DNA of 36,267 bases from Asterionella formosa (GCA_002256025.1 NKIB01009642.1:62001-98267); one strand, 5' to 3'. Shown: positions 687 through 35,365, counted from the first letter of the stretch. Notes: generated from the letters alone by a model not told the origin. Translations and numbers: made by a program.

Positions 687-1517
687 AAACGGGAACAGAG
701 TGGAAGCTAGAGCCAGAATCTGAAAAATTGAAAGACGAGTTGGGCGTCATTAGGGACCGCAGCGGGTACGGATGTACTGGAAGCAGCTCAATTAATCGGT
801 TAGTTACTTCTACTTACGTCTTCCCATCGCCTAGTCGAGTGTTTTCTGCTAGGAAGCCTTGGTTTCTTCGAGAAATGGTTTGGCGGGCTATCCAATAATG
901 CTATTTCAACGAACAACGGGCGAGAACACGCTTGCTTTGCCTGGACTAGCAAATCAGCCACCTTCTTTCTCGTCTCTTGAGTGCTACCGGTATGCCAATT
1001 TCTCTGCATAATAATCATTGATTGCAAAATGGAGACCTTCGTTTGTTTTGAAGCGCATAGCCGAGCAGTAATGGTTTCAAAGAGAGACAATCATGTGAAA
1101 TGTAATTTTACCCGCGGCATTATTACCTGCATGTTCTTGCTGCCGCTGCGTTTCTGCCTGATGGGCGGGCGGTCTGTGTTATTTCATATGTTTGTTTAGG
1201 TTACGGCCCCGGCTTAACCCTAGTTTGTGGAAAAAACTAGCTAGGGTTGTAAAATTGACGTGGAACAGGGAATTTGTTTCTGTGTAGTCCCATGATGCAA
1301 GTATCTGTCTGAATATTTAAACTAAGTAGAAAATGGGGCCACATTGACAGAGTTCTATTTCAAAAGGAATGAAGACGTTTATGTTATATCTACATTGCTC
1401 AATGTAGATATAATTTTACTCCCCACCAGAACACATGATGTATAGACTGTAACTACTAGTATATATACCTCGAGCGTAGAGTATAGTCATCTTTGAGCAA
1501 AAATATTAAGTCAAACA

Positions 1518-1983
1518 ATGCAACACCAATCAACCATGAGTTCTGTTGGATTGCCCCTACTAGTGAATACCAATCCTCTTCCATACAATCATGTTCCGTG
1601 CCCTACTTGTGTTGATTGTGTCATTGTTGAATCAGAAGTTTCAGGCTGTGGAAATCACATCTTCTGTGACTTTGCATGCCCAGAGTGTCAATGTTGGTCA
1701 ATGTTGATGGGACGAGATGGAAGAGTTAGTTGAGCAATACATGGAAACAAACTTAGTTCAGCTTCGACTTGACGAAGATATTATCACGCCGGGCCAAGGA
1801 AGAAACCTTATATACAAGTTTCTGGTCAAGACATTCTGTGGTTCACTTGGGAAAGGCATCCGAATGGAACTTCCAGATCGTTGCTTGAAGGGGGTTCGTT
1901 TGCTTCTCAAGAATAAGGACCCCAAATACGAGTACACTGGTTACCAACCAGTGTCTAAAAGTATCAAACATAGTAGAAAATGA
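1518..1983 (+). pseudogene. KolX-like accessory protein (P2X7 C-terminal ballast-like Zn-binding domain), one frameshift near 1716
   Basis: The Cys-rich ORF 1518-1733 (CPTCVDC...CGNHIFCDFACPECQCW) joins ORF 1717-1983 if one base is restored in GGACGAGATGGAA. The second part, GRNLIYKFLVKTFCGSLGKGIRMELPDRCLKGVRLLLKNKDPKYEYTGY, fits the R..xY..F....G.LG.G.R..LP.C....IR......YTG[FY] pattern of KolX/P2RX7_C. Confidence 0.75.
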
Positions 1984-2172
1984 GTGTTTGTCATATATTA
2001 ATTTTATTAGTTTACATTTGAAGTCGTTATTACATGTTTGAAAATCTTCTATCATGTTCAGCCAATCTTGTCAATGAATATTCGAATATTCAAACATTTC
2101 AATCATAGGTAATGAAAAATTGAAATCCTCATTTATTTATTGCATCATTACTACAGTTCAAAATAATAGACA

Positions 2173-4481
2173 ATGACGAGATCAGGAAACCAAACTCGTC
2201 TCCTTGCCTCGATTATGAATGGTGGCATGGACGCTGTACAGTCAAAGATGTACCTGATGAAACAAATTGGTTTGATGAGCCAAAAAGACTGGCTGATACA
2301 ACAGAAGTCAGACCTCCACTAACGAAGCTGCATGGACATCGTTTGCTGTCAATAGAATCTTTGCAGCAGTTTCTACAAACCGATATTACCTGTAGTAAAT
2401 GGAATGAAAAATTGAGATTGCAATCGTATAACAATGGTTACAAACAAGCAATTAAAGATTTACAAATGTACCTTTGCAAAGAATCTAACTCAAAAAATCA
2501 ATAAATGATAAATGCAATGCATTCCTTGAAAGCTCCGCGTTCCTTGACAACGCTGATGATCAACCCTGCTTTACAGAATGCACGGCTGATTGTTGATGAC
2601 GATGTCAGTCCATTTCTCGGCATTGCATGTCGAATTTCAATTACATGTGGACTTTGTGATTCAAGAAAGTATATTGAACCTGTAATTTGCAAAAATAAAG
2701 GCAATCAAATGGGACACTTTGCAATCAACAGCATGTTTGTTCTTGGTTGTCACGAAGCAGGAATGAGCCCGGTTGACGCTGATATAATTTGCTCGTCCCT
2801 TTCCTTCTTGCCTTTGCAGAGTGGTTTCTGGAGTAGGAAGGAAAGGTTCCGTCAACTGGAGCAACGAATTGGCGAAGCTGAAATTGATGTAACAGAACAT
2901 TCAATGAGAGAGGCAATGAATGAGGAGGCATGACTTAATCTGGACATACATGAACGTCATGTTTAGTCCCATGTTGGGAAAGACTATTCTTGGTGGAAGA
3001 AGCACGCGTGATCCCGGAAAACATGCCAAGACTAACAGTAAGTTTTGATATGGGCTGGCAGCAGTGCTCCAGTGGTTACAAATATAATTCGAATAGCGGG
3101 CTTGCTTTCTGTATTGGGGGCTCTTCAAAAAAGATGCTGAATTACTGCGTAAAATCGAAGGTATGCAACATTTGTGACTATGCTGCCTGGCGGTTTACGT
3201 CAGCCAAACCTCATGTTTGCTCTAAGAATCACCTATTGGGTAGTTCCAAGTCAATGGAATCTGATGCTGGTGTTGAAATGGTGATGAAGGCTGTGGATTA
3301 TTATCAAGTCTTCTACACTACAATGGTTTGTGATGATGATTCAACCTTACAAACTAATTGCAAATGGTCTTGTAAAGATTTACAACTACAAAATTCTTTG
3401 TTTGAATAGCCAAAAACCGACAGCGGCGCAAAAAAGGCAAACCATGGATGCCTTCCAATACATGTCGAAGAACCGGTTTTTTCTCTGATCCCTCGCACCA
3501 AGTTTGTGTCTTACTTCGCCCCTGTTTCAAGATGTCTTGAGGCCCAAAATGCAATGCAAGATTCACAAAAAACCGACTGCCTGCAACTGAAAATCTACTA
3601 TGGATGCTTCATTAAAAAAATCGACATAAAACATTTGAAGATTTCCTAGCAGCATCAATGGCGCCAATCCACCTTTTATTCGACAGTCATGAGCACTGTA
3701 ATCCGGAATGGTGTCCTACAAAAGCAAATAAAAGAGTAAGTAATGGAAAATACCGGAACATTGATGATAACAAGGAAATTTTCGATAGGTTAATTGAAAA
3801 TGTTGGCAAAAGGATGGAAGGTGAGAAACTCAAAGCATTACATTATCCATTTGATACGCAAATGAATGAGGGAATGAAAAATGCTGTTACAAGGCATTGT
3901 CCAAAAACAAAATGTTCGCTGGCTCCCGAAGCCTGCTCTACCGAGTAGCATCAGTGGCAGGACAACAGACACAAGGCGCTGATAAATACATGTCAGATGT
4001 ATTTGAAAACTTGGGAATGACAATGTCAACCCAACAACTAACCTTTTGGAGTCAACGGCAAAAAAAGCGAACAAATGATGCGGAGTATAAGAAAAAACCC
4101 ACAAGGAAACGCAAACAAAGCGAAACAATCCATAGCACACGATTTGAAATAGTTAAACAAGAAGAGACCGACAAAAAACGAGGACGAACTTACAAATCAG
4201 GAATAGCAGTCACCGTGGATGCTGAAGGAAGTGTTCAACCTCCCACTTCCAAGAAATGCAAACATTGCGGACTTACCGATCATTTGAGAAGGCCGAGTGC
4301 ACGATGTCCATACAACAACAGCAAAACACAAAGCACCTCGCTCCTCATCTTGAAATTGTACATGAAACTATTGGTAATGCTGATTTTACTGATGCATCTG
4401 ATATGGGACATGTGGTTCAAGTGTAGCTGGCGTGTTTTTACAAGAACGGGATACTCCAGTCAATCCAGAGCATGTGAGTAA
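2173..4481 (+). pseudogene. DDE transposase pseudogene (Kolobok type; family often labelled 'Mutator-like transposase')
   Basis: Collinear ORF fragments carry GHRLLSIESLQQFL..ITCSK, ITCGLC, VSFDMGWQ (first D), GLAFCIG..SKKMLNYCVKSKVCNIC, HVCSKNH..GSSKSMESD, MVCDDDST (second D), HLLFDSHEHCNPEWC, DTQMNEGMKN (E) and a C-terminal knuckle CKHCGLTDH......CPYN. Interrupted by stops (2502, 2931, 3407, 3538) and several frameshifts. The true 3' end is uncertain. Confidence 0.88.
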
Positions 4482-5084
4482 ATTCAATTCAACCAATCTG
4501 TGTACCGGTAGTGATGCGGGAACTTACCGTCGAGTCTTTTCGGACAGCAACTTACGAAGGCAAATATACCTACTATGCAAGACTCCTATGTCTTCAAGAA
4601 CGTTTTCGTATGTACAAATTCCGATTCCAATATTTTGGCGACTGTTGAAAAAGCCGATCTGGTCGACTTTTTGGCGTAGGATTGCTCTACATCTGCGGGG
4701 TTTCACGAAGATTAGAATAGATAGCCGTGTACCCTATAACGTCAGGGGATAACTTCCGGAGAGAAATTGCAGTTATCCCTCGTAGATTTTTAGAAAAGCT
4801 TGATAGCCCCCTTCTTTGATAGTTACGATTCCAAGAGCAGGGGTACCTGCAGATTCTCTCCAGAAATGGGGTCCTTACCATATCTGTACATAGATCATAC
4901 CCTTAAGCAAGTCGAGCAATGACAGTATCTAAGCATATGCAAAGTGGTCTTAATGGTGAAAGCTAAATTTACCTTAAACTATTTTATTAACTTGTACATG
5001 ATGTGTGGATGGACATACCTCATAAAAAAATATTTTGGGAAGAAACGGACCTCGCAATTTGTAACTGTGGGGCCGCAACCTTAT

Positions 5085-6041
5085 GGTTCCTGCATTTCAA
5101 CCCTAGTTTAGAGGTAGGGTTAAAAAATAATTTTGAGTCAGAGTACTCAAGCACAGACTTCTTACGAGTAAAACATAAATGTGTATCGCTAAACGGAGCT
5201 TTCACCAATATACACCCTTTCCATATGCTTAGATATAGTCATTGACAAAAGAAGGGTACAGGTCAACGCTATACCGGTATATCGTCAGGATATAGGATCT
5301 TGCGAGAAACTGCAGAAAGGAACTTCAGTTTTTTAACTTTGCTATAAAGACCAGAAATTTCGGGGGAAATCACTTTATTTGCTTAGCATAGTAAAAAAAC
5401 GGACGTTCCTTTCTGCAGTTTCTCGCCTGAGGTTATATACTGATGCTATTTGAAGGTTACTTATGTATCTAAATCGGCTTCAGACCCAGCCAACGTTGAG
5501 TTATCATTGTCCAAAAATTCGACGAAATCGGCCTTTTCTACGGTCCCCGAAATATCGGAATTGGAACCACTTAGCACCGAAACGTCATCATTGGAATGGT
5601 AGTTTCGTGATGCAATATTTAGTCGTAAACTTTCCAGTACCGAAAATGATATTGTTAGTGCGCGCAGTCTTATATATGTCCTGATTGGATATGGCGAAAT
5701 ACTCGACTCCGTTTGATTGTGAAAGGAATTGCAAACCCACACCGCCCATATTGGATACATGTGTAGCATTTCTTTGAGTGTACCGGTAGGCCGGTACTAT
5801 ATCCAGTTCGGGTACCAGTAGATTATCATCATTGGACAGTACATATACATCATACAGTGATGCACATTCTCTATATATATATTTAGCTATTTCAAAAAGG
5901 AATCTATGTACGTACGCGCAAATTTCCAGTGATTTGAATATTTCAAACGGAATCATGTCATTCAATAATAGCTCCTATAAATTCTTAGTTCCAGGGAATT
6001 TCGGTAACCCTAAGCAATTTTAAAGTTGAAATACAGGAACC
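5085..6041 (-). mobile_element. Non-autonomous Kolobok-like element, subfamily B, copy 1 (957 bp)
   Basis: 17-bp TIR GGTTCCTGCATTTCAAC / GTTGAAATACAGGAACC (1 mismatch), flanked by TTAT and TTAA (6042-6045). Collinear with 33476-34393. Subterminal blocks match the ends of element A in reverse orientation. Confidence 0.9.
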
Positions 6042-6060
6042 TTAAACTATCATATCATTT

Positions 6061-6325
6061 AGTTGTACGTAGCTATACATCGCGAGGTCTGTTTTTCTCC
6101 AAAATATTTTTATACAGCAATATAGATATAGTATAAACGTTTAAATTTCATTTTTGTTTGTTTCAAATGGAATTCTATCAATCTGGCGCCGATTCCTATT
6201 TAATTCAAATATTCAAATGGACACTCTAATTATGGGAGTTCTTAGTAGGAAACTCCCTGTTCCACGCCGTTTTTACAACCCTAGCGATATTTCCTCCAAA
6301 CTAGGGTTAAGCCAGGGCCGCAACC
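6061..6325 (-). mobile_element. MITE-sized internal-deletion derivative of subfamily A (about 265 bp), inverted
   Basis: The reverse complement of ~6135-6325 aligns with the left end of A (1199-~1383: GGTTGCGGCCCTGGCTTAACCCTAGTTTG...CTAGGGTTGTAAAA..GTGGAACAGGGA). The reverse complement of 6061-6113 aligns with the right end of A (AAAATATTTTGG..AAAC.GACCTCGC) with a damaged TIR. TTAA lies at 6326-6329. Confidence 0.8.
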
Positions 6326-8252: not shown

Positions 8253-8356
8253 ACAAAATAATTATTCACATCACTAAAAGTCATGATACTGTCGATTCAA
8301 AGAGAGAATTGATGACATTCTCTATTTAGTCTTTTTGAGCAGCTGTCCTGCATTAC
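8253..8356 (+). repeat. Dispersed ~105-bp repeat, copy 1 (probable TE fragment)
   Basis: ACAAAATAATTATT...AAGTCATGATACTGTCGATTCAA..GAGA.TTGATG.CATTCTCTATTTA..GTCTTTTTGAGC..CTGTCCTGC matches 30820-30934 in the same orientation. Confidence 0.8.
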
Positions 8357-8364
8357 TTTGTGTT

Positions 8365-8645
8365 TTTTTAAAGCTTCGTAGCCCCTTTTTTGGGATAGTT
8401 ACAATTCCTAGGGGGATAACTGCCACTTCTCTCCAGATATGAGGTCCTTAACATATCTGAATATAGATCTTACCCCGAAGTCGAGCAATGACAATATAGA
8501 AGCATATGGAAAGTGGTCATATTGGTGAAAGCTAATTTTTCCTTTTACTATTTTATTTTGCTCTACGTAGTGTGTAGATTGAAGTACACCATAAAATTAT
8601 TTTGGAAAAAAAGACCTCGCAATGTGTAACTGTGGGGCCACAACC
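8365..8645 (+). mobile_element. Solo 3' end of a subfamily A Kolobok-like element
   Basis: Aligns with ~4790-5080 (AAGTCGAGCAATGACA...AAGCATATG.AAAGTGGTC.TA.TGGTGAAAGCTAA...GACCTCGCAAT.TGTAACTGTGGGGCC.CAACC) and is followed by TTAC. Confidence 0.88.
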
Positions 8646-9045
8646 TTACTAGCATTTGTGCAATCAATCTCTGATATTGCTTAGTAACAAATGAGTAATG
8701 GAGGAAAATAATATAAAGCTTGCCTTCAGAATAGAATGCAAATGTAAGTCTTAGTATAACCATGCTATAGGTATTGTCTGTGTTATGCATTTGGCAGGTG
8801 TGCATAACCAGTTGAAAACGACTTTCTCATGGCTTAAAGATATGCAGAATTTCGGCTGCTGGTATGTGTGAACAAACAAATACTAGGGCAAATATTTTAT
8901 CAAAATAGTTGATGATCAGATTGCTGTGAAGACCACTGTGCAATCATTCCCATTTGATCATTTATATACATACTTAATTGTCCACTCCTAGTACACAACG
9001 AATAGGGATGATACACTAGTTTCCAATGAATAACTCTTCGGAAAT

Positions 9046-14569: not shown

Positions 14570-14822
14570 ATTTGGTCAACACAAACACAATTTTTTTACA
14601 GTTAGAAATAACAGTGCAAAATATAGAAATATGTTTATCCATGTATGACTACAAATGATTTCCCGGAATATTTCATGACTTGCATGCTCATACCCGAAAT
14701 GGCTTGCTCTTGCCAAAATAGGTACCTGATGGTAATATGCATATACTATATATGTACACATCAATCAGCCTAATGTACTTCGTTTGTCATCCTCTGTTTT
14801 AGATCATTGTGATGATGTCATC
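14570..14822 (+). repeat. Dispersed repeat forming the 5' flank and start of the DUF6818-like ORF, copy 1
   Basis: ATTTGGTCAACACAAACACAATTTTTTT...ATGACTACA...ATGGCTTGCTCT..CAAAATAGGTA...TACACATCAATCA...TTGTGATGATGTCATC matches the reverse complement of 30445-30698. The first ~75 bp also match 16278-16350. Confidence 0.85.
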
Positions 14823-16073: not shown

Positions 16074-16277
16074 GTTAAATGAATATAGTAAATCTAAGTC
16101 TTTGAAACATTACTCTATGACTTACAACGCATATCTGTTAGCACTTCTACGCAAATAGGGCATGTAAACCGAAGCAATTTGATTCTGACAGACTTTAGAT
16201 CAGCAAAGAATATGGCACAAATCATTTTGGTATTTCGAAGCGCACCCACTGGTGAGCGCGCTACCAGGTTTACGAAA

Positions 16278-16350
16278 TTTGGTCAACACTAACACAAATT
16301 TTTTACTGTCATAAAAAACAGTGCATTTTATAAGAAGATGTATAGGCATG
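16278..16350 (+). repeat. Short direct copy of the 14570 repeat
   Basis: ATTTGGTCAACACTAACACAAATTTTTTACTGT.A.AAA.AACAGTGCA...ATGT.TA..CATG aligns with 14570-14643. Confidence 0.8.
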
Positions 16351-17387
16351 AAAAACAGCTTGGTTCTTGCACTCAGTGCCGGAACACACCAAGCAGGAGC
16401 TCAATGTCTTACTTTTCAATATCATCCTTCAAAAAAGATTGAGCAAGAGATCATTGCATATCGTGCAAAGCGATGACCGAAACAATCTCCCACAATCGAA
16501 GCGGAAAATCTGGAGTACTAAAGAAAGCTGGAGCAAAGCCCGGCGATTTGGCAACAATCTCTCCTTCGCCCTGCAGCAAGAAGTCAGAATTAGACAAGCT
16601 CAACGTTTGTGTATCGATATCGAAATCATTGGTTCACAGGCTGTTTCTTTGCTTCGTTGTCATAGTCATGATGTTTGATCTTTGGTATTTCTTTCCTTTG
16701 GATGATTCTTGTTTGCAATGATCCTCTTAAGAGTATTAATAAATTGTGAGACCATTTCGCTCCGAAATATTGTTTAGGTGCATTCCATTACCCATTTTAT
16801 TCAAAATGAACCCTTTGCAGTTGTTTTGACATGTCAATGCAGTCGAAGGGAAAAATCATGAAATGCATGAATTTTGATGGAAATATCTCACAAATCACTG
16901 CAGAATCACTCCTGTCTCTTCTCGTTCTATATGAATCGATTTCCAGAAAACGAGCAACCTGCACGCTATGTGCGCGCTGATTGCCGGACCTTCCAGGGTA
17001 TGAAATTAATTTATATAGCACATATTAGTAGAATTAAAGATTGTTTAGTAATCTTTTTTGACAAATGGGTTTGTCGTTATTTGCACTGCAGCTGTTTATA
17101 TTGTGTTCCCACTTTCCTACGTACTACCTGGTGATTCATCAGCATACCACTACATATACCGGTAGTCTAAGATATGCATACCACATATGGTGTGTCATTT
17201 ATTATATAAATATACAAAAAGTATACTTCTTGACATGATCTAGCAGGGCCATGTTGCAGCATACCTATGATAAAGTCATTCAATGGTGAACGTCAACAGT
17301 AGCATGTTGGAAGATACATATGTCCAATACGTATGCATGTGCCAGTACTTCAATAAATGGATTTATGACAGACAGCATACTGCTACC

Positions 17388-18329: not shown

Positions 18330-18574
18330 GAGGTACCTGGTACTACCGGTTTGATCATATGAACAAATCTCCGGTTTCTCCCATACTCAGATATAGCTTT
18401 TGTCTATTCTTATTAGGCGATTTCTAGTAGTCTAGTACAAATTGCCGTACTTGTGTCCCGCGTGCACAATCGTGAGGATTAACGACAGTGAATTTGGAAT
18501 TCCTATGAATTTTGGTATAAATTTAATCTTATTATAATGAAGTCGACGTACATCAATATATTACAAAAATCAAG

Positions 18575-21500
18575 ATGGAGCCAACAAAAAGCGGCCAGGA
18601 AGTTGACGAGAACATTTCGCTGGCCACCGAGGTTACCGCACGTAATGCTGTTGGGCAAATTCTTAGCGTAGGCGATGCAACAGCGGTGACCCTCCTCTTA
18701 TCGGACTGGTCTAATTTCGGCTTGTCAGAACGAGTTTGCTACCACTTCGACTTGATCGAAACGCTCCAGGCTGCGTCGGGAGACCATGTTATAAAACGAG
18801 CAGTCACAGAAAGTCCAAGCTTGTCGTTACACATCGGTACCAAAGTCTGTGGAGTCGCAGCTTTGCTGGAGTGTATCCCATCTCTTTCTGTGAACCAGTT
18901 GACAAAGCGACAGAGAAAGACCCTGAAGAACCTAATAAAGCAATTCAATGACGAGGCACTGACCGTACAAACTGAGAAGAGATTGGCATGCCATCAGCCA
19001 TCGTATCTGCCCCTTCCATTGAATCCGATTACACGGCTAGCTTGTGCATACGAGCTAACAAAAGTTGCATTTTGTTTAGATGCGTCGCCCACCTTGGTCT
19101 CTATGTTTGGTGCAGGCAACGACAACGATGTATGTTGCTCACTTGATCGTCTACCTGAAATGGTGAGAATTTTCTTCATGTCCATGATAGAACCGATTGT
19201 TTTGCCGTACATGGGGGGCAACCAAACAGGATGGACACCAATTCTAGCAGTGACAGTTATTGCCGTGTATCCCAGAGGCCCTGATACGTCCAACAGTAGT
19301 TTGCTTGTTCGAGATTTTCGTGTTTACGATAGAAATTCAGCTTTGGAGATTTCTAAAAAGATTGGAGAATGGGCCTTGGGAGAAGTGGAAAGTCAGATCT
19401 CAACGAGGCTGAGCAGCCGGGGCGCCGCATCTGCTTGTGATGGCTATGATTCTTGGACCATCCCGAAGTACTCGACTAATTTCCGTGATGTACTGGAGGC
19501 TGGAGATGTAGCTCTCAGTCTGCTTCCAGTAGAAGCTCGTCCATGTATCGTCGTTGCGACTGATGCCAGATCGGTTGCGTGCGACGGAATCTTGGACTTG
19601 TTCGCTGACAACCGACGACATGATACTCCCCTGTTTCTGCTTGATTTATCCGCATCAAAATCACATCTTCGGACTGGAATTCTTACAAACGAAGGAACAT
19701 GTAGCGATTCCAGTCTCCTTTTGTATGATCCTGGTGGGTCGTCGGCATTCCCATTGCATTTATCTGACGATAGCGAATCACTTTATGGGATCTGCAAGGC
19801 AACGGGGGGAGCCTTCTTTGACATGGAGCTACTCATCGAAGCTGCAAATAATCTCGCAGGGCAGCTGCCAGATAGATCTCCGCTCGCTGCAGATCAATAC
19901 CTTGTCAACCGACGACGGACAATGAAACCGAATGCTCTGCAGTGGTATGTCTTGTTCTCCTTGTCTCCACTATCGCCGGCCCCTCACTCGTCTTGGGGTA
20001 AATTGGTCCCACCCTCATATCTTCGGAGAATGGCAATGTATGGAAGGGAGGCACCAAGCTTGCTTGAAAAAGTGGAAAATCAAGCGCGAGAGAGACCCGA
20101 GAGACTCTCAAGTGCTGACTCAACCTTGTCCCGTCGACAACCATCTCGCATCACTTTTAGTACATATGTTGTCTCTCCGGTTCGAATCAAGGTGTTGCTT
20201 TTGGCCAGAATTAAAGAGGGTTATCGTGCCAAACAATACGGGCAAAGTACAATGGAGAAGAACAAAGTTTCAATACAGATGACTCTGCCTCTTGAACTTG
20301 GAACTGTTTTGCATTATGAGGTTCAGTACACATCACTAGTTGGTGGTGATCCCATGGTTGGTGTTGCTCATGTTAAATTGGAACTGTCTGGAGAATCAGG
20401 ATACATTCAGCTTGTGAAGACTAATTTTTTGTCGACCGCCACGAACTTGCCCCAGCGTTGGTCAACGATTGCTCAAGGTTCGTCAGCTCGATTGTGTAAG
20501 TACCTACGATGGGTACGGAAGGAAGATCTCCTGCAATCTCTCTTATGCATTATCAGTTGGAAAAATACGCTATCAAGCGACGATTCTCCATTTTTAAGGA
20601 GATTGAGGGCACTATCGTCCCTTCAACTTGGACGATTCTTCAGGCGAAACGAATTCGATGTAATATGCAAATATCGGGTGCCATATACTTGTGACGATAA
20701 TACAAAGCTTAGCGAACTCATCGATCTCGAAAATTGTGAAAGAGAATTGTACAATGCTCTCGGGGAATGGTCGAATCAAGTTGTTTTGGCAAGAAGTAGT
20801 TACGTCAAAATTATTTCGAACCCTGGTGGGTTTTCGGAGTATGCTATTGTCCATATCAATCGATCGCCACGGGTATCTCGTTTGTTCAACGTAACCATTG
20901 ACACTTTATCAGGCACAGATACTAGTGATCGTCTGATATTGGTCGAATCTCTCAAGGAAAGGCTTTCATCGCTGAAAGATATTATCTGTCTGGACTTTAT
21001 TATTGACTGCTTCTTAACCGGCGTTCAGCAATCTTCGACCCGAGATAGTTTGCTTGCAGATCATTTCAGTCACGAAAGTTGGGACTTAGCAAAGCATCCA
21101 GAAATACTACCGCTGATCACGAAACGACGAAATGAGATTGCAAAATTTTGGCTTCTTCATTCGTCCGATTCCTATGCGCGTTTTGCAAGGCTTGTTACTG
21201 CTGAGAGGGACGTGGGTGGAATATTAGACACATACTTAGATGAATACCAAATTGAAAGCTGTGAAGATAAAGTAGTAATCAATATGCACGTTGAGCGAGA
21301 CAACGGACGCTTTTTTTGCTCAAATCCTAAAGGATCGCCCGAAATCACGAGAGCGCATCGCCTTTTTGTGAGCGTAAAACGCCGTGACCAAGAATGCGGG
21401 ATCGCACTTCGAAGCCGAACCAAACTATTGGGAATACTTCAACCTGAAAAGCCCGAGATGTTACATCCTGATATCCAGGTAGAGTGTCTTGAACGCCTTC

Positions 21501-24500
21501 TGGCATACGCGGCAAAGCAAACACGAAAACTGAGATTTTTTGGGCAACCTGCAATTACTGCCAATCGCATTTTGGAGGAGCTCACAATTGATTTGATGCT
21601 TTCAGACTATTTTGATGTCAATGTTATAAAGCTTAGCATTAGCTCCGATGCAATTGTTGCTGGCGAGAAACCAGGCGCTTGGTTTCTCATTAACTTTGAT
21701 CGGCGCACCCTTATTATTGTCCATATCACTCTCGTCGAGAAGGTAGAGGAAGGACCTGAAGAAATGGGTGCAAAATCTTCCTATCGAGAGCTGACTTTCT
21801 TTACGATTGGGATTAGTGATCTTTACTGTCCTCGAGATGACGTTGCCGACGACGAGTCTGTAAATGGGCAGATCATTGAGCATCTAGGTGTTGAGGGTCA
21901 AATTGCCGACGCCATCGAGGCCGCTCACGGGAGAAATTTCGCCAAAGCAGCATACTCGGCCCTTTGTGTTGACAAAGGAAACGGATTTTCTCCGTTCTTA
22001 GCAAGTCAAGACATCCAGTATGCGTTGAGCTTTTGTGATTTTGTGGAAGTTGCCAACGTGTTCATCCCCATATCGTCAGAGGAAACGACGACAAACGATG
22101 TTGTTTCCTCATCAAAGCTCGGTAGAATATTGGGGGAAGTACTTGCCCCACTACCAGGAAACCCGATCACTCAATTTTATTTCCCTCGTACAACTGAATC
22201 CTTGCGAGACCATTTGCACTCTAGAAGCTTTTTGTTTCATGACAGTGACGATTCCTATTATTTAATCTCTGATGATTCTAGCGACGACGCTACTGAATCC
22301 GGTGGTGCTGCTCCTCGCTTGACCCACGACGAAGATATTAATATGAGTGAGGACGGCTCAATAGTTTTGGAAAATCCTGAGATGTTCATTGTAGCGCCTC
22401 CTATTTTTGTAAGATTTGTCAGCGACGACGGGCATATTTTCTCTTTACAAGAACTTTCGGAGGTGCAAGGTATAAGTCTGAGGATTTTAATTCCCATGTT
22501 TAAAAATCTCGATCCTTCGGCCGTTCCAAAGGTGGTCCAGACTCCACATGATGAGCATCCTCATTTCAAAGTGGTAAATGAGCTGGAATCAATTTTGAAG
22601 GCATACGTTGCAGAACAGACGCTCGAGAGATTGCGAAGACTCGGCATTGCCATTGATGAATCCGGTATAAGATCAGTCCAGCGATGCTTGCGGAAAGCAA
22701 GAAACGTCATTTCTGATTTTGTCGATATTCACTTCTATACTTCCAAGTCTGACACACTTATTACCGCTTCTGAAGCCGAGGGCAACGAAGCAGCGTTAGA
22801 AAATGGCTTTGAGCTGTTGTACTCTGAACTGTCTGCAAATCTAGCGATGACTCTTCGCGATGCCTCCCAAGACACATTCTACGTTGTCGACACTGAAGAA
22901 GCCAGTGATCGTAGAATGAAATATTGGTGTTTTATTAGCTTGAAACGATCATTTGGAGGATGTACAATCGAAGTGTTTCACCCAAGCGGGTCCGAAAAAG
23001 CTTCAGCTGTATTGTCTGCTGCTCGTTTTGTGGTTAGCCAAACAGGAAAGAGGGTCAATCAGCTCCTTTTGTTGAAAAACTTGCATATGAGTCGAGTAGC
23101 AAGTTCACTTCTGATCTCCGATGAATGTGCAGACTTTGTAAGCGATGGATCCAGGGAAAATGATACATTCGGCTCAAATTCATTCGCTTGTCCAATAAAA
23201 TTTACGTCCACTTTCAAACTATTCCACCGATGTTCAGCAACCCAAATGATTCTTGCAGTAGAGGCAACTGTTCTTCATAGTTTTGCAGTCTCAAATCGAC
23301 GAGGGTTCTTTGTATACAAAGACGAAACTGGTGCTATCTTCTACTTGAATCTTAGTCCAGTTTCTAGTTCTGCGTTGAACGAAAATTCAATTGAGTTGAA
23401 AGTCTATGGAGTGGAAGAACCAGGGCCGTCTATTACACAGCAATTGAACGAAATTCTTCAGAAGAGATTGTTGTCACTCTCGGTGGATACATTGTCGTCA
23501 TTGTTGACGAAAAATCCCAATTTCAACTGGAAGAAAGAGGACTTGCAACTTATCCGTTCCTTCCGCCGTAGTTTCTCGGTCTTGGGCGAAGGCGATGAAG
23601 TTCAAATCAACAGTGAAGACAGCATTTACGAGTTTCCCGAACAAGTCTTCGATCCACTCGCTGTTCTCCTTTACTTCAAACAGAACTTATGTGGTTCCAC
23701 TTTCTTTCACAGGCTCCAAGACCAAAATTCTGAGCAAGCCGAAATCGACGCCATGCTCACAATTCAGGGGGAGGGTTGTTGCTCCGGCTTTGGTCTGGAG
23801 GTCAAGTTTGACCCCTCTGAGTTCAGGTTTTTTTACAACAACGCCCCATCACCCTTAGATCCGGGCTATGAACACCTTTCCACGCTCACCTTGAAAGGTT
23901 CGGAATATGCCAGAATGGCTGGTAACGGAATCGCTCTCATTGAGCTGACATTGGTTGACAAGCAGGGGTATGATATTAGCAATATCAATGTCGGACTGAA
24001 TATTGACAAAATGAGAAGTTCTCTAGATTCGTCTCTCATTTCTTTGCGAATGAGGAAGTTGGCACATGACGGCAGCATAGTGCTGCAGTCGTCATATGGT
24101 GTTCGTGTCCGCATCGTAGACACTGCCATGAATCGGATTGCCTTACACAGGTGGATTCAACTTACACTTGACCAAGTATTAGTTAGTTGGTCGATGGAGC
24201 GCCACATTGAGCGAGTCAGCAAGAAGTTGCTTACTACCGATACTGTTTTGAAGAACAGACAGGAAAATCAAAGTAGTTATACGATACGGGAGCGGCAAGC
24301 CATTTTGGATCAATTGTGTCCAGGCTTACAAACTTTTTTGTTTATGTGCCAGTCGTCGTACAACTTGCCCCATCCCGCAATTGACCAAGTGGAACATCAC
24401 GGCGTTATTAAGGCTTCGTCTGTTGCCACACTGGCTTTAAGTATGCTGGATAGGAACGTCATGGGAGCATTAGTAAAGAGTGGAACACCATGGACGAACC

Positions 24501-26938
24501 GAAATGTAATCATTGTTCGTATGTCTCGAGAGCAGCGGCCAAAGCTAGTGAGCTTAAACTGGGATGCATCTCATCAAGTTGCTCGCGTTCACGAGCTTGG
24601 ATTGGATAATCCACCAGAGTTCAAGGATTTTCCGATTGACTGTCCCGAGTATATTTGTTTCTACTGTCATCAGCGATACAGTGCCGACGAAGGTAATGCT
24701 AATAGTGTACTTTCCCTCCTTTTGAAAGAAGTCATGGTTGACACAAAACTCAGCGAAAGCAAAAGTCGCCCCTTCACATCTGCTATGCAATTTCTCAAAG
24801 AAAACAATCCATCCGTCTTTATGAGATCCCTTGCTTTTGTTCTTATTGTGAAGCGAAATAGGCGATTATTGCTAACTTATAATTGGGATCCGCGAATACT
24901 TGTCGACGTAAAGGCTCGGATAAAGGAGGTTGAAACGTCTGCCACTTCGTCGTTTGGTTTATCCTTACACACACAGCAACGCAAATGCCTAGGCGCTTTG
25001 TCTCCCCCAGTGGCAACAGGTCGCTTTCTTAAAAAAACTGTGAATGTGGCAAAATCTGATAAAGGGAAAGATAGTGCCGACAGAATGCCTGAGAAGGGTC
25101 TAAATGTCAACAACAGTATCGCGAAGCCAGCTTTGCATAGCGCTGGCACAATGAAGACTCATGTTCGACGAATTCAGCGTCCTACAATGATCCGGAGGCC
25201 AACACTCGTCGGGAAGTCTGTGGAAGGTGCGGCAGTACAAGCAGTGGCAGCGTCGAGGGCACGAGCGAGTTCAAATCGTTTCTCGCACCCAACTTTGGCA
25301 AACAAATCTGTTTTGAAGGACGGAAGTAGCACTCGACGGCAAAGCAATGTTAGCGACGACTCCATTCGCAAGGCAAAAATCAGGGATGGTGAAGACCAAA
25401 GCACCTTTGGGCAAAAGAAAGAACGAGTTGCTACAGAGGCTGAGGTAGTGGGACTGTTTGGTGCTTATGATAACACCAATTCTTTGGCGAGGATCCCTCG
25501 ACCGACGAATACGCTATTGCAGAAAATTTGGATAGATCCATCCATCCAGGCCCTTTCTTTTGCGATGAGAAACTTTATCCTAATGCAATCGACAAAATTA
25601 TGTATTGATACAGTTGAATTGTTGTTAGCTCTCCCTCGTTTCGACAATCACGATGTACTTTCATCCTTTACTGATTTCCTGCAGATGCAATTTCCTGGCC
25701 TTCGAAGTCTTCCGACAAAGGATGGATCGAGTCAATGTGAGACTTTGACTTCAGTTTTTCTCCTGATCCAACTTAAATTAGCGAAATGCGTTGTTTTTCG
25801 ATTGCAACTGTCAAAAGAAAAACCTGGCAAACGAATTGTCCGTCTGGATACATGGCTCTTACAGCTTCCGCCATCGAAGACGAAGAAGATTCGGAAACGG
25901 AATCTGCCAATGGCCGAGACAATTTGTGCAGCCGCTGATAACCAATTGGCGGCTTGTCAAAACGCATTTAACCTCGACGTTCAGTTTTTCAACTTTTCGG
26001 GGCATCTAATTGAGAAATTAGTTGAAAGCGAAAATTCTGAGTCACGATGGCACAACGCTCTGATCCTGTTGCAGCAGCTCGTTGAACACCATTCTTATGA
26101 GAAACAACATTATTTGTGGGGCTTGTGTTACAACGTTTTCGAGGCTACCATTGTACTTGCTTCATACAAGAGCAACATCATTGATATGTATGACGCACAG
26201 CAACTTTATGACAGCTTAAATTCAGGACCAGACATGGTAAATATGATGCGCTGTGGACCTGATTCCATGTGCTTCCTCCCGAGAATACTGGCAAATGGAA
26301 CGATTTCCTTTTGCTTTCTTCTTCGCGAACCTAGAGTCACCAAAAAACTGAAGTTGCTTATTTTGTGTCGTAACGAGGGACGAAACATTGAGCACTACAT
26401 GTTTCCAGATGGTTCAAATGTTGCTGCAAAGATTGTGAATGTGATTATTGTTCAAGCCGCCAGACTTACATACGACGCCTTAGAGCTGGCAGGAAATAGG
26501 GTGCGGAGAATGGCACTGTGGGAATCGTTTACAGTCAAACGTCGAGGGCACAGTCCTACGGTGACGGACTTCGAGGATTTCCTCGACACAGCATTTTCCA
26601 GGTCACTGTTGCAAATAGATGAGGTGTTGAAGTCTTTCTCAGTCGCCGACAACGAGATGAGTACGAATTGGTCACTCTTGGTAACTTGTATGAAGAAAGA
26701 TAATGTTTTCCTTCCATTCTGGTCGTTTTTGGTCAAAGGATCAACAAAGTTAATTTTCTACATCGGCTCCTTAGACTGTTTTCTCATGTTCGATACACTT
26801 GAAAGAACTGAGACTGAGATTGTTGATATGAAAATCTTGATTCAGGAAGCTGCCTTGGAAAGCCAGCAAGCGAAGGCATTCCAATTGGCACAGATCATCA
26901 CCAACTACATTTTATACTTCACGTGGCAAACGACGTAA
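18575..26938 (+). CDS. SZT2: SZT2-like protein (KICSTOR complex scaffold), 2787 aa, single ORF
   Basis: SZT2-type motifs occur in the expected order: LTKVAFCLDASPTL (vWA-like start), LLARIKEGY, FAVSNRRGFFVYKDETGAIFYLNL, LKVYGVEEPGPSITQQLNEILQKRL....VDTLSSLLTKNP......EDLQLI, and LLTYNW. The size is consistent. Confidence 0.85.
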   Translation: MEPTKSGQEVDENISLATEVTARNAVGQILSVGDATAVTLLLSDWSNFGLSERVCYHFDLIETLQAASGDHVIKRAVTESPSLSLHIGTKVCGVAALLECIPSLSVNQLTKRQRKTLKNLIKQFNDEALTVQTEKRLACHQPSYLPLPLNPITRLACAYELTKVAFCLDASPTLVSMFGAGNDNDVCCSLDRLPEMVRIFFMSMIEPIVLPYMGGNQTGWTPILAVTVIAVYPRGPDTSNSSLLVRDFRVYDRNSALEISKKIGEWALGEVESQISTRLSSRGAASACDGYDSWTIPKYSTNFRDVLEAGDVALSLLPVEARPCIVVATDARSVACDGILDLFADNRRHDTPLFLLDLSASKSHLRTGILTNEGTCSDSSLLLYDPGGSSAFPLHLSDDSESLYGICKATGGAFFDMELLIEAANNLAGQLPDRSPLAADQYLVNRRRTMKPNALQWYVLFSLSPLSPAPHSSWGKLVPPSYLRRMAMYGREAPSLLEKVENQARERPERLSSADSTLSRRQPSRITFSTYVVSPVRIKVLLLARIKEGYRAKQYGQSTMEKNKVSIQMTLPLELGTVLHYEVQYTSLVGGDPMVGVAHVKLELSGESGYIQLVKTNFLSTATNLPQRWSTIAQGSSARLCKYLRWVRKEDLLQSLLCIISWKNTLSSDDSPFLRRLRALSSLQLGRFFRRNEFDVICKYRVPYTCDDNTKLSELIDLENCERELYNALGEWSNQVVLARSSYVKIISNPGGFSEYAIVHINRSPRVSRLFNVTIDTLSGTDTSDRLILVESLKERLSSLKDIICLDFIIDCFLTGVQQSSTRDSLLADHFSHESWDLAKHPEILPLITKRRNEIAKFWLLHSSDSYARFARLVTAERDVGGILDTYLDEYQIESCEDKVVINMHVERDNGRFFCSNPKGSPEITRAHRLFVSVKRRDQECGIALRSRTKLLGILQPEKPEMLHPDIQVECLERLLAYAAKQTRKLRFFGQPAITANRILEELTIDLMLSDYFDVNVIKLSISSDAIVAGEKPGAWFLINFDRRTLIIVHITLVEKVEEGPEEMGAKSSYRELTFFTIGISDLYCPRDDVADDESVNGQIIEHLGVEGQIADAIEAAHGRNFAKAAYSALCVDKGNGFSPFLASQDIQYALSFCDFVEVANVFIPISSEETTTNDVVSSSKLGRILGEVLAPLPGNPITQFYFPRTTESLRDHLHSRSFLFHDSDDSYYLISDDSSDDATESGGAAPRLTHDEDINMSEDGSIVLENPEMFIVAPPIFVRFVSDDGHIFSLQELSEVQGISLRILIPMFKNLDPSAVPKVVQTPHDEHPHFKVVNELESILKAYVAEQTLERLRRLGIAIDESGIRSVQRCLRKARNVISDFVDIHFYTSKSDTLITASEAEGNEAALENGFELLYSELSANLAMTLRDASQDTFYVVDTEEASDRRMKYWCFISLKRSFGGCTIEVFHPSGSEKASAVLSAARFVVSQTGKRVNQLLLLKNLHMSRVASSLLISDECADFVSDGSRENDTFGSNSFACPIKFTSTFKLFHRCSATQMILAVEATVLHSFAVSNRRGFFVYKDETGAIFYLNLSPVSSSALNENSIELKVYGVEEPGPSITQQLNEILQKRLLSLSVDTLSSLLTKNPNFNWKKEDLQLIRSFRRSFSVLGEGDEVQINSEDSIYEFPEQVFDPLAVLLYFKQNLCGSTFFHRLQDQNSEQAEIDAMLTIQGEGCCSGFGLEVKFDPSEFRFFYNNAPSPLDPGYEHLSTLTLKGSEYARMAGNGIALIELTLVDKQGYDISNINVGLNIDKMRSSLDSSLISLRMRKLAHDGSIVLQSSYGVRVRIVDTAMNRIALHRWIQLTLDQVLVSWSMERHIERVSKKLLTTDTVLKNRQENQSSYTIRERQAILDQLCPGLQTFLFMCQSSYNLPHPAIDQVEHHGVIKASSVATLALSMLDRNVMGALVKSGTPWTNRNVIIVRMSREQRPKLVSLNWDASHQVARVHELGLDNPPEFKDFPIDCPEYICFYCHQRYSADEGNANSVLSLLLKEVMVDTKLSESKSRPFTSAMQFLKENNPSVFMRSLAFVLIVKRNRRLLLTYNWDPRILVDVKARIKEVETSATSSFGLSLHTQQRKCLGALSPPVATGRFLKKTVNVAKSDKGKDSADRMPEKGLNVNNSIAKPALHSAGTMKTHVRRIQRPTMIRRPTLVGKSVEGAAVQAVAASRARASSNRFSHPTLANKSVLKDGSSTRRQSNVSDDSIRKAKIRDGEDQSTFGQKKERVATEAEVVGLFGAYDNTNSLARIPRPTNTLLQKIWIDPSIQALSFAMRNFILMQSTKLCIDTVELLLALPRFDNHDVLSSFTDFLQMQFPGLRSLPTKDGSSQCETLTSVFLLIQLKLAKCVVFRLQLSKEKPGKRIVRLDTWLLQLPPSKTKKIRKRNLPMAETICAAADNQLAACQNAFNLDVQFFNFSGHLIEKLVESENSESRWHNALILLQQLVEHHSYEKQHYLWGLCYNVFEATIVLASYKSNIIDMYDAQQLYDSLNSGPDMVNMMRCGPDSMCFLPRILANGTISFCFLLREPRVTKKLKLLILCRNEGRNIEHYMFPDGSNVAAKIVNVIIVQAARLTYDALELAGNRVRRMALWESFTVKRRGHSPTVTDFEDFLDTAFSRSLLQIDEVLKSFSVADNEMSTNWSLLVTCMKKDNVFLPFWSFLVKGSTKLIFYIGSLDCFLMFDTLERTETEIVDMKILIQEAALESQQAKAFQLAQIITNYILYFTWQTT

Positions 26939-27363: not shown

Positions 27364-29679
27364 CTAGTCTGACTTCTTGCCCATTTCGCCTTTTGCTGCT
27401 TTACTTTTTCCTCCTTCGGCGACCATGCTACCTTCATCGCTGTTTACACCAGGTGGGCACTTCTTGCAGAGCCCAAAGGATTCACCTTTCTTTAGCTTTG
27501 CTTTCTCAAATAAATCTTCCGTATTTTCTTTTAGTGCCATTACACCATTGGTAATGCTCTCATTTGTCTTTGTCAGTTTGGTTTCTAAAATTTCTGCTTC
27601 TGCTCCAAATTTTCCTTTTGCCGTCGTGGTAGCTGCTTTGGGCATGTTATCCTCCAAAACTTCATCCACAGTATTGAACGGCTCTCCACCACCTCCAATT
27701 TGCTCCTTGACATCATTCAACAACGTCTCATCAACCCGAAGTTTACCCCTAGCATCATGGTGCAACACGTTGGCAAAGGTGTATCCAATGATCAGGTCAT
27801 CATAGTTGTACACCTTTTGGTTGTACACTGTCAATCCAGAAACGTTTGACTTTCCAGTAAAGCAAACTACAATTTCATGGAAATTAACGTGCTGTCGTAG
27901 CTTTTGATGTGAGTTGAGTGATTCGGGCCAAAATCCATTGTTGGCAGCGACCAAACTCCTTGCTTCCAATGTCAGAAGGGGAGAGTTGCCGTTAAGTGTG
28001 TGTCGAATGATCCAATGTCGTTTGAAAAAAGGATGAGATGGTGTCTCGAGTTCAAGGGTACAAAATACGCGTCGTGGGACCAGCTTGGACCCCTCATCAA
28101 TCACCGCCCGCTGCTCCCTACTGGTCTGGAGTATCAATGCGTCACGGGTCATGAGTTCGACATCGGCAAACATATGTCGGTCGACGTCGGGGTCACACAA
28201 TGAACCTTGGCTGCTCATCCGATGTCTTGACGTTGACCGCCCAATCAAGGTTTGGTTGGAAGTGACAAGAGGAAATACATTATCGTTCAGAGTGTGACAA
28301 GCTGGATTGACCATGTTCTTCGAGATTGGATTAATGATGTTTGCACTGATTGGTCGAAGTAAGTATTCATTCACTGGATTGAGGAAGTATGCATTGGCAA
28401 TTTCTCCTAGTTTTTTCTTACTTTTGGAATGGCGAGAAGTGTCAACCAGTTGAATATAGTCACATGCATTTTCTGCCTTGATACTGGCTACACAATGAAC
28501 TACAGAATGAACAATTTCTCCCCCGGGGACGTTGTGTTTGCCATTGATCATCCGAAATTCCAAAACGGGACACGGGATCTCCTTGTCTGAACATGTTACT
28601 TCGGAAGTTCCCGGATTCGCTTCTGGCTGTACACCACTTCCATATCTCACCAAGATGGCATAGCTAAACATCAAATCTGCCGTTCTTTGAAACCGTGACA
28701 CTTTACCGAAGACAATTGCTGCAGCTGTAGCGGCATACAAAATTCCGGTGAATGCCTCTAATGCCGCCAAAATATTAATTGCATAACAGCCTCCTCTAGT
28801 TGGTACTGCGACATTTGGATACACCAACCCATATCCGACAGTACTAAATGTTGTCCAACTCAATTGAAACAAATCCAAGAACGATTCTGTACCTTGATAC
28901 TCGAATTTCTGGCCCTGTACTAAGATGCAATTGGGTTGAAAATGAGCAGCAAGAGTAAAGAGACCTGCAAAGAATGTTGTGATGATCCAAAAGGAAATCA
29001 TGAGTTGAAAAACAAGAGCCGCAAAAGTCGTCCGAAACGACCAGTTTAGATATCTCGTCATTCCAGGGAACCATGTGCTTTTTGAATTATCATAATCCGG
29101 ATTGATCGTCCATCGGTGGAGGCAGCTTCGATCTTCGGCCTTCATAGTGCATAACGATAAAGCATACACACTTATGGTGTCAGCAACGCACATATACAAG
29201 ATATGATCCATCAAATCAAATGTCACAACAATACACACCCTTTGAGTCTTCAATCGATATTGTTTAATGGATCCGCCCTCCAAATCATTGCCTTCTTCTG
29301 CGTTTTCTGAGGAATCCAGGGTTGCTGTGGGTCGACTCATTCCTGTCGCCCAACTCAAGATACTATTTCGTACTCTCCTCCAACGATCCATGGGGCGTTC
29401 CTTCGGATCAACCGCTTCGGCGGTACATGTCTTGGATTCGAGCGACCCCGTTTCAATATCAACCAAGGATGATTTTCGCACCAAAAAGTGTTGCTTGGCA
29501 TCACCGAAGATAGATGCGAATTTACCAGCGAACCGGCGCCGCAAGAAATTGGGACAAGGACTTCTCTGTGCGGCCCTTAGCGAGGAGTAGGCTTCGTCGT
29601 TGTTTTCACTTCGAAACGATGTTACCTCGTGTTCGGGGATGTCTTGCAGCAATCGTTTCGAGGGAGCAACCGAAGGCAT
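27364..29679 (-). CDS. Inward-rectifier-type (Kir) potassium channel; probable start 29679, probable 99-nt intron 29238-29140
   Basis: TM1 (TTFAALVFQLMISFWIITTFFAGLFTLAA), extracellular Cys (PNCI), pore helix and filter FQLSWTTFSTVGYG, second Cys plus TM2 (GCYAINILAALEAFTGILYAATAAAIVFGKV), and Kir cytoplasmic motifs PVLEFRMIN and HWIIRHTLNGNSPL. The upstream in-frame ATG at 29796 adds a GTAC-rich, promoter-like stretch. Confidence 0.9.
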   Translation of the reverse strand: MPSVAPSKRLLQDIPEHEVTSFRSENNDEAYSSLRAAQRSPCPNFLRRRFAGKFASIFGDAKQHFLVRKSSLVDIETGSLESKTCTAEAVDPKERPMDRWRRVRNSILSWATGMSRPTATLDSSENAEEGNDLEGGSIKQYRLKTQRVCIVVTFDLMDHILYMCVADTISVYALSLCTMKAEDRSCLHRWTINPDYDNSKSTWFPGMTRYLNWSFRTTFAALVFQLMISFWIITTFFAGLFTLAAHFQPNCILVQGQKFEYQGTESFLDLFQLSWTTFSTVGYGLVYPNVAVPTRGGCYAINILAALEAFTGILYAATAAAIVFGKVSRFQRTADLMFSYAILVRYGSGVQPEANPGTSEVTCSDKEIPCPVLEFRMINGKHNVPGGEIVHSVVHCVASIKAENACDYIQLVDTSRHSKSKKKLGEIANAYFLNPVNEYLLRPISANIINPISKNMVNPACHTLNDNVFPLVTSNQTLIGRSTSRHRMSSQGSLCDPDVDRHMFADVELMTRDALILQTSREQRAVIDEGSKLVPRRVFCTLELETPSHPFFKRHWIIRHTLNGNSPLLTLEARSLVAANNGFWPESLNSHQKLRQHVNFHEIVVCFTGKSNVSGLTVYNQKVYNYDDLIIGYTFANVLHHDARGKLRVDETLLNDVKEQIGGGGEPFNTVDEVLEDNMPKAATTTAKGKFGAEAEILETKLTKTNESITNGVMALKENTEDLFEKAKLKKGESFGLCKKCPPGVNSDEGSMVAEGGKSKAAKGEMGKKSD

Positions 29680-30049
29680 GTTGACAAAAGTGCGGGATTG
29701 TATTGCTCCGTCGACAGTCCGGCACCGTAGTCTGTACTGGTACCTGTTACAGTACTGGTAGTATTTCAAATCAGAGGCGACTTTCCGAGGAAACATTCAT
29801 AAATGAATAAATACCGGTACATATGCAAACCGAAATATATTACATACCGGTGTGGTAACCGGTACTTCCGTCGTAAACTCATGACGACAATCCCGTCAAA
29901 GCATTCCCACCGAGTACGACCGGCCTGCAATCCTGTATGTACTTGCATGGCTGATGTTTGCATGATCTACGACCATATACAGCTAGCTGTGGGCGCGCTC
30001 TGATATTTAAAAAATATTATATCATCTGTCTATTACAACACAAATTATT

Positions 30050-30444: not shown

Positions 30445-30698
30445 GATGACATGATCACAACATAAATGGAAGCAGACAATTGATGAACATCTAATATAAC
30501 TTTAAAATGATTGATGTGTATATGTATATGCATACCAATACCTATTTTGAGAGAGCAAGCCATTTTTGGCATGATGAGCAAGCAAGTCTTGAAATATTAT
30601 GGGAAAGTATATGTAGTCATTCATGCCTAGACATTCACTTATATAATACACTGTTATTTGTAACAAAAAAATTGTGTTTGTGTTTGTGTTGACCAAAT
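30445..30698 (-). repeat. Inverted copy of the 14570-14822 repeat
   Basis: The reverse complement aligns with 14570-14822 up to and including the TTGTGAT.ATGTCATC start context. Confidence 0.85.
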
Positions 30699-30819
30699 AT
30701 GGTAACTCCAGTTTGCACATCCTACTTTTGCTTTGGGCTACCCCTCTATTGCCCCAGTTGCTGTGGTAGTTATTTTCTTTTGTCAGCAATTTGCCTCGTT
30801 TTGACGTTTCTGTGTCTAG

Positions 30820-30934
30820 ACAAAATAATTATTTGTCTCTAACAAGTCATGATGCTGTCGATTCAACAAAGAGAGTTGATGTCATTCTCTATTTACCGTA
30901 CTGGTAGTCTTTTTGAGCGCCTGTCCTGCGTCAC
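30820..30934 (+). repeat. Dispersed ~105-bp repeat, copy 2
   Basis: Matches 8253-8356, with a small CCGTACTGGTA insertion. Confidence 0.8.
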
Positions 30935-35272: not shown

Positions 35273-35365
35273 TTTATCCAACGATTTCGCCAACTAACAA
35301 CATCTGCATGGTGTTTGGTTTATCCAACGATTTCGCCAACTAACAACATCTGCATGGTGTTTGGT
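35273..35365. repeat. Perfect tandem duplication, period 46 bp
   Basis: TTTATCCAACGATTTCGCCAACTAACAACATCTGCATGGTGTTTGG occurs twice in tandem. Confidence 0.92.

Follow-up and report, generated by a model that had tools for sequence, protein, structure and literature searches.

Several DNA transposons carry transposase-binding repeats inside their ends, such as the 12-bp TnpA motifs of En/Spm, the internal 11-bp inverted repeats of the P element and the internal repeats of piggyBac. These cis sequences lie 100-300 bp inside one or both ends, are needed for transposition or enhance it, differ in arrangement between the two ends and persist in non-autonomous copies. They are short, defined by their sequence and often present in several copies. 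Sites specified by the structure of single-stranded DNA are found in the attC sites of integrons, the subterminal hairpins of IS200/IS605 elements and the 3' hairpin of Helitrons, all of them imperfect palindromes with conserved mismatches near an element end, whose structure is conserved while the sequence drifts. Such systems work with enzymes of the tyrosine or HUH type, pass through single-stranded intermediates and have no TIRs or TTAA duplications; in Helitrons, which have neither TIRs nor target duplication, 10-12 nt separate the hairpin from the CTRR 3' end. To our knowledge, the cis requirements of Kolobok transposons are essentially unstudied, and we know of no Kolobok element with a worked-out mechanism.

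Kolobok elements are defined by TTAA flanks and 5'-RR...YY-3' termini (Kojima and Bao 2022, PMC9587614). As far as the available portions of the sources go, the elements analyzed here resembled the Kol0 group with KolX (PMC9587614) and the Xenopus T2-MITE (PMC6004289) in their TTAA flanks, 5'-RR...YY-3' termini, putative DDE transposase and abundant non-autonomous derivatives. A description of a subterminal hairpin or palindrome in Kolobok elements was not found in the portions of PMC9587614, PMC6004289 and PMC7845603 that were available, so that we found no published account of one; Repbase entries or supplements could hold one.

The DNA analyzed, referred to as the window, was a stretch of 36,267 nucleotides from Asterionella formosa (GCA_002256025.1 NKIB01009642.1:62001-98267), eukaryotic DNA with about 42% GC. 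The features on which the analysis was based are given below.

1199-5080, plus strand: element A, a decayed autonomous Kolobok-type transposon with GG...CC termini
1384-1413, plus strand: 30-nt palindrome with 14-bp arms, 186-215 bp inside the 5' end of A
4741-4878, plus strand: hairpin of A, degenerate, core arms 4752-4778 and 4841-4867
4931-4964, plus strand: 34-nt block AAGCATAYGNAAAG...TGGTGAAAGCT, where conservation of the shared 3' sequence is highest
5085-6041, minus strand: element B1, non-autonomous, gene-less and B-type, about 957 bp long, carrying a TIR of its own (GGTTCCTGYATTTCAAC)
5284-5444, minus strand: hairpin of B1, arms 5279-5344 and 5384-5449, 66 nt, 82% complementary
6062-6325, minus strand: fragment C, an A-type derivative of 264 bp that lacks the hairpin
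8370-8645, plus strand: solo A-type 3' fragment, 5'-truncated, with loop and right arm GGGATAACTGCCACTTCTCTC (about 8413-8433)
33476-34393, minus strand: element B2, the second gene-less B-type copy, 918 bp long and flanked by TTAA at either end
33667-33823, minus strand: hairpin of B2, arms 33668-33734 and 33756-33822, 67 nt, 85% complementary

The defining features of Kolobok elements were confirmed in the host elements, with TTAA flanks and with GG...CC at every A-type and B-type end, which corresponds to 5'-RR...YY-3'. Among the 12 readable 3' flanks, 7 were exactly TTAA and the other 5 differed from it by one letter; TTAA was present on both flanks of B2 and of L008, a copy from the metagenome described below. 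Element A was flanked by TTTA (1195-1198) and TTAT (5081-5084). Its transposase ORF pieces (2124-4481) were split over several frames, and the ORF at 2954-3409 matched Pfam PF20700 "Mutator-like transposase" with an E value of 1.6e-29. A Cys-rich ORF upstream of the transposase (1497-1733) was a candidate KolX, for which no Pfam match was obtained at E up to 1. A splice-site reading of the 3' part (GTGAGT at 4474, acceptor-like CCAG at 4866) was rejected on account of an immediate stop codon.

B1 was inverted relative to A and inserted exactly in the TTAA at the 3' border of A, and about 480 bp of 3' sequence was common to A and to B1 and B2, in the orientation opposite to that in A. The TIRs read at the ends were GGTTRCGGCCCC in the A type and GGTTNCTGCATTT in the B type, which bore out the first-pass annotation in its claim of two subfamilies with different TIRs. 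In fragment C, about 45 bp from the 3' subterminal region followed the 5' 215 bp, the two being joined at the centre of the 5' palindrome. A, B1 and C were clustered (5081-5084, 6042-6061) as a local pile-up at TTAA sites, C lying another 12 bp along. In run X1, 30,910 contig pieces resembled the window stretch, although contig depth is not copy number. With the same proviso on depth, the summed X1 contig depth was 1,086 over 6069-6100 of fragment C versus 35,532 to 2.4 million in the bins of B1, and fragment C may therefore not have multiplied.

Several other features were recorded in the window. A single open frame at 18527-26938 (plus strand) coded for 2,803 aa with no Pfam match at E up to 0.01, and an 810-aa frame at 27364-29796 (minus strand) gave weak matches to potassium-channel domains (IRK_C, E 2.3e-5; Ion_trans_2, E 0.002). 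A dispersed repeat family, unrelated to the Kolobok copies, occurred at 14570-14780, 16270-16352 and 30499-30705 in direct and inverted orientation with 77-90% identity. A perfect tandem duplication of a 46-bp unit was located at 35273-35364.

The long hairpin that had been reported about 200-350 bp inside the 3' end was found at about 190-360 bp, and this position was constant among the copies. In the window, the inverted repeats of A, B1 and B2 were located where the first-pass annotation had placed them, with strong folds in B1 and B2 and a weak one in A. The hairpin of B1 lay 199-359 bp inside its 3' terminus (5085); its DNA fold had a z score of -9.49 with 0 of 200 shuffles as good, and 48 of 55 alignment pairs were Watson-Crick. 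For B2 (191-347 bp inside the 3' terminus at 33476), the z score was -13.24, again with 0/200 shuffles as good, and 51/55 pairs were Watson-Crick. In A, where a spacer of about 57 nt separated the arms, the hairpin was located 202-339 bp from the 3' terminus. The 27-nt arms were 81% complementary, the core had 17/21 pairs, and 33/54 alignment pairs were Watson-Crick. However, the hairpin of A was not convincing by itself, because its fold was no better than chance (z -1.64, 14/200 shuffles as good); the minimum-energy structure of A contained another small hairpin instead. The loop of 40-60 nt proposed for all copies applied to A but not to the B type, where 21-39 nt separated the arms, and the arms of about 58 bp proposed for B2 proved too short, as B-type arms measured 66-75 nt.

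The homology of the outer stem was upheld: the motif GAGAANNNGCAG occurred without mismatch in both arms of A and B1 and in the right arm of the solo fragment, and with 1 mismatch in each arm of B2. It had 17 hits in the window, 7 of them in hairpin arms, compared with 8.3 expected by chance. The solo fragment, which aligned with A at 78.6% (8370-8648 versus 4795-5083 of A), carried GGGATAACTGC at 8413-8423, the complement of the left arm of A, in agreement with what had been noted. It had no left arm; homology to A started from about 8359-8370, the break coincided with the left-arm edge, and only positions 44-156 of the nhmmer model were matched. A repeat of 78.6% identity (8253-8351 and 30820-30929) adjoined this fragment at the place expected for the left arm. 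Except for the 30-nt palindrome at 1384-1413, no further closely spaced long inverted repeat was found in the 36-kb window; a degenerate version of this 5' palindrome was present at the same place in L006, an A-type copy from the metagenome.

A metagenome scan was run with the conserved 34-nt block, which follows the hairpin at a distance of about 50-70 bp, as probe. In the window the block had 4 exact matches versus 0 expected, the other copies being at 5197-5230 (minus), 8500-8533 (plus) and 33585-33618 (minus). The block held two GAAAG-type direct motifs, and proteins may in fact bind the 3' end here. The scan returned 12 loci (L001-L012); with a relaxed block pattern, 0 loci were obtained in a genome contig collection and 0 in a viral contig collection. 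Because their 3' ends had different flanks, the loci were separate insertions, with the exception of L003 and L005. These had been taken for two copies of a hairpin-less subfamily until BLAST showed one locus (99.2% identity over 474 bp, and the same downstream flank after a 311-bp difference), so that no amplification without the hairpin was demonstrated by it. The 311-bp difference (L003 472-474 versus L005 2122-2432) was a B-type 5' piece inside an A-type terminus, either a structural polymorphism or an assembly chimera. A 58-nt palindrome upstream in L003/L005 was part of another repeat, also present at 304-402 of L005. In L009, a second partial B-type 3' end (1625-1772) directly followed the TTAA of the first copy, in a tandem or nested arrangement.

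Together with the 4 copies in the window, and with L003/L005 counted as one locus and L002 left out as uninformative since it was cut by a contig end, 14 loci were informative. Both arms were present at the homologous position in 10 of them (A, B1, B2, L004 and L006-L011). One arm only was found in 3 (the solo fragment, L001 and L012), with the break at the centre or the edge of the palindrome, and the whole hairpin region had been lost in 1 (L003/L005), between short repeats. Searching the window and all loci with an nhmmer profile of the hairpin yielded nothing beyond the 10 complete and 3 half copies. Frequent successful copies lacking the hairpin, which the first-pass annotation had named as evidence against its reading, were not seen in the data examined, the single locus L003/L005 being the sole full deletion. 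L006 was a young A-type deletion derivative of 1.2 kb, consisting of the 5' 240 bp and the 3' 680 bp, with a perfect, uninterrupted main helix of 22-23 bp of the GAGAGAAGTGGCAGTTATCCCTC type (fold z -6.79), and the young B-type L010 had a fold z of -12.59. L007 represented a third stem sequence, the GAAAGTGCATTTATG type, and was decayed (z -1.18, no better than shuffles).

The ten complete hairpins were aligned with MAFFT (alignment A3, 55 pairs), and the same column pairs fitted all ten. Compared with partners slid by 1-3 columns (35.6-44.6%) and with shuffles (76.7 +/- 0.9%), 84.2% of cells were paired in the alignment, a value reached by 0 of 500 shuffles. Pairs changed on both sides numbered 18 of 55 versus 5-8 after sliding and 11.1 +/- 2.0 after shuffling, where 1 of 500 reached 18, and the covariation score was 0.238 versus 0.115 +/- 0.013. 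The covariation was based on just three to four independent lineages, with three A-type stem sequences and the B-type one among the copies; roughly one position in three differed between the A and B types (66% mean column identity). Between L006 and L010, 13/27 pairs differed over columns 15-41, and 12 of these 13 pairs of the main helix were Watson-Crick in both. Pair 27/139 was T:A, G:C or C:G across three lineages.

In the common architecture, a small internal loop separated the outer helix from a helix of 5 bp, which was followed by the main helix, 22 to more than 40 bp in length; the spacer, 57-75 nt in the A type, contained a conserved C-run. An invariant core in the main helix, GAA-N3-GCA paired with TGC-N3-TTC, was formed by G23 A24 A25 and G29 C30 A31 with their partners. 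In a sequence-defined dimeric site on duplex DNA, the half-sites would be expected at a fixed spacing, with conservation of sequence and not of pairing; here, the distance between GCAG and CTGC of the core varied (76 nt in A versus 92-97 nt in B) and the pairing covaried outside the core. A 12-nt core-like motif in the 5' half of B1 (5860-5871) was not conserved in other B copies, and the idea that the arms mimicked the TIR (CTGCATTT versus CTGCAGTTT) was dropped, for the A copy of the window combined an A-type TIR with a B-like stem core. Mismatches were inherited as well: a 3x3 internal loop was located at columns 12-14/152-154, and a 2-nt mismatch at columns 20-21/145-146 was common to B2, L004, L008 and L001. 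The symmetric changes were partly multi-nucleotide blocks, at columns 26-28 (3 nt, GTG/ACT) and 33-41 (the inner 9 bp), and from the alignment each of the two blocks could represent one symmetric mutational event.

Substitutions were compared between arms and remaining sequence in 7 gene-less B copies, which had been found via the probe 50-70 bp from the hairpin. Singleton letters were taken as decay after insertion, and differences shared by at least 2 copies as changes in lineages that later multiplied. Singletons occurred at equal frequency in the two classes, with 31 in the 118 arm columns and 120 in the 416 others, whereas shared differences were about 3 times rarer in arms (6/118 columns versus 60/416, Fisher p 0.006); the mean pairwise difference was 0.100 in arms and 0.177 elsewhere (Mann-Whitney p 0.001). 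This was a small test, and misalignment of the flanks would exaggerate the difference. The results indicated that arms mutate normally and that multiplying lineages seldom carry arm changes, which fits purifying selection on arms in transposing gene-less lineages, as far as can be judged from sequence comparison. Because the arms would be constrained in elements that encode nothing, a role in cis was indicated. Given the double-sided changes in 18 of 55 pairs and the depletion of shared arm substitutions in gene-less B copies, the earlier proposal that pairing or dyad symmetry is maintained, also in non-autonomous copies, was supported.

We propose that the palindrome is a structure-constrained cis-acting DNA element that is needed for, or promotes, proliferation in this diatom Kolobok clade, and we put the probability of this reading at roughly 0.45. 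It starts from what was observed: a palindromic structure at a constant position, covarying pairs and a deficit of inherited arm substitutions in gene-less copies. The conserved property of the palindrome would be intrastrand pairing. When the DNA is single-stranded or strongly unwound, as in replication, repair synthesis or under negative supercoiling, it would fold into a hairpin, and the folded stem might be recognized by the transposase, an accessory KolX-like protein or a host architectural protein. Such recognition could help the 3' end to enter the transposition complex, or could couple transposition to replication, while copies that do not move would just decay. Several points stand against the proposal. 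The hairpins of A and L007 folded no better than shuffles, and derivatives without the hairpin exist, namely the L003/L005 locus and fragment C. No single-stranded stage is obligatory for a DDE transposon of the cut-and-paste type, and with spacers as long as those of the A type, spontaneous extrusion of a cruciform from duplex DNA would be unlikely.

Since these spacers disfavor cruciform extrusion, two other explanations stay alive, a structured RNA and a palindrome without function whose symmetry is kept by mutation itself. The latter, which we hold to be possible though rather improbable, would perpetuate itself through template switching in replication or gap repair, or through mismatch correction of a transient hairpin; these mechanisms would act mainly in repair synthesis during transposition, and resident copies would decay. 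Multi-nucleotide symmetric blocks such as those at columns 26-28 and 33-41 are the product expected of template switching. Moreover, breakpoints clustered at palindromes, with one arm only in the solo fragment, L001 and L012 and a break in the middle of the 5' palindrome in fragment C, and several single contigs of run X1 skipped 56-148 bases inside hairpins. From this clustering and these skips, the palindrome was judged to be mutationally active, and this fragility makes a template-switch origin of some symmetric changes plausible. The B arms also extended over sequence homologous to the unpaired A-type loop, which could reflect arm extension by copying. However, unbiased copying from arm to arm leaves the substitution rate unlowered, yet shared differences were depleted in arms at an equal singleton frequency. 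Mismatches and internal loops persisted within lineages, although general arm-to-arm correction would have erased them, and their unchanged inheritance together with the deficit of shared differences argued against in-place correction. In decayed copies, no private symmetric changes were seen beyond two CpG-type transition pairs (L009, L007).

As for a structured RNA, the hairpin would belong to the 3' untranslated part of transposase or read-through transcripts and serve RNA stability, 3' end formation or diced small RNAs that regulate or silence the family. In A, the last long ORF (3870-4481) was on the strand of the hairpin and ended about 270 bp upstream of it. Long spacers suit the folding of RNA or single strands more than a cruciform, and stems of 40-75 bp that pair almost perfectly make good substrates for Dicer. 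Similarity to plant miRNA precursors in Rfam was below threshold, equal on both strands and far from the gathering score (MIR7504 48.3 versus 83 bits, mir-8186 25.4 versus 80, MIR2629 20 versus 60). The metatranscriptome run X8 gave low-depth contigs over parts of both hairpins, among which one of 268 nt spanned the whole B hairpin (5278-5491, depth 2.9) but could be DNA carry-over; in the poly(A) RNA run X19, from the same sample as the best DNA-containing run, depth was 0 over 4727-4909 and 5276-5397, which is weak evidence given contigs of low coverage. The comparison of wobble pairs by strand that had been suggested was carried out on the aligned hairpins and gave balanced counts (G.T in 13-17 cells, A.C in 18-20), that is, no RNA-type wobble tolerance on either strand. 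The initial interpretation was supported in part, as to maintained pairing, and any choice among its cruciform, dimeric site and RNA readings would be tentative. The arms were conserved in copies without gene or promoter, where selection on an RNA function is hard to see. We regard a structured RNA as unlikely. Still less probable is passive descent from an old nested insertion or foldback, with a small foldback or MITE-like palindrome that landed in the ancestor of A and B and was carried along as a relic. The B palindrome as a whole (about 160-190 bp, arms pairing almost end to end) looks like a foldback MITE, and nested insertions are frequent in MITE-rich genomes, with A, B1 and C themselves clustered at TTAA sites. 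But no TTAA or other clear target duplication flanked the palindrome in the copies inspected, and passive carriage explains neither the pairing kept through a divergence of about a third nor the deficit of shared arm substitutions.

As a structure-constrained cis element, the palindrome would share with the repeats of En/Spm, the P element and piggyBac its place inside one end and its retention in non-autonomous copies. It differs from them in being one inverted pair with arms of 20-75 bp, in the covarying pairing outside a small core and in a spacing that varies by tens of bases. With attC sites and the hairpins of IS200/IS605 elements and Helitrons it has in common an imperfect palindrome with conserved mismatches near an element end, in which structure is kept while sequence changes. 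The hairpin is also not of the Helitron type, since it lies 190-360 bp from the end of elements with TIRs, TTAA flanks and a putative DDE-type enzyme. MITE-derived hairpin RNAs and miRNA precursors are alike in being long hairpins of transposon inverted repeats, with the sub-threshold MIR7504 similarity as a further link; unlike them, the diatom hairpin is internal to the element and not formed by the TIRs. Subterminal cis sequences and structure-defined hairpins are known elsewhere, and the new aspect, as suggested by the sequences, would be a subterminal element of Kolobok transposons that is defined by pairing. By analogy, a DDE cut-and-paste Kolobok element may even use a folded single-strand DNA hairpin as a structure-specified signal at one end, read like attC or the ends of IS608, although we consider this doubtful. 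If true, the signal could tie transposition to the passage of replication forks or to repair synthesis, and the instability of the hairpin would also explain the origin of the many deletion derivatives of the family.

If the palindrome were just self-maintaining, it would still be a clean natural example of palindrome dynamics in a mobile element, including breaks at the centre and arm extension. If it is a cis element, such a subterminal site, defined by pairing and not by sequence, would be uncommon among DDE cut-and-paste transposons. The site would provide a concrete target for first excision assays with stem mutants and compensatory mutants, and would aid the annotation and sub-classification of the very abundant non-autonomous copies in diatom genomes.
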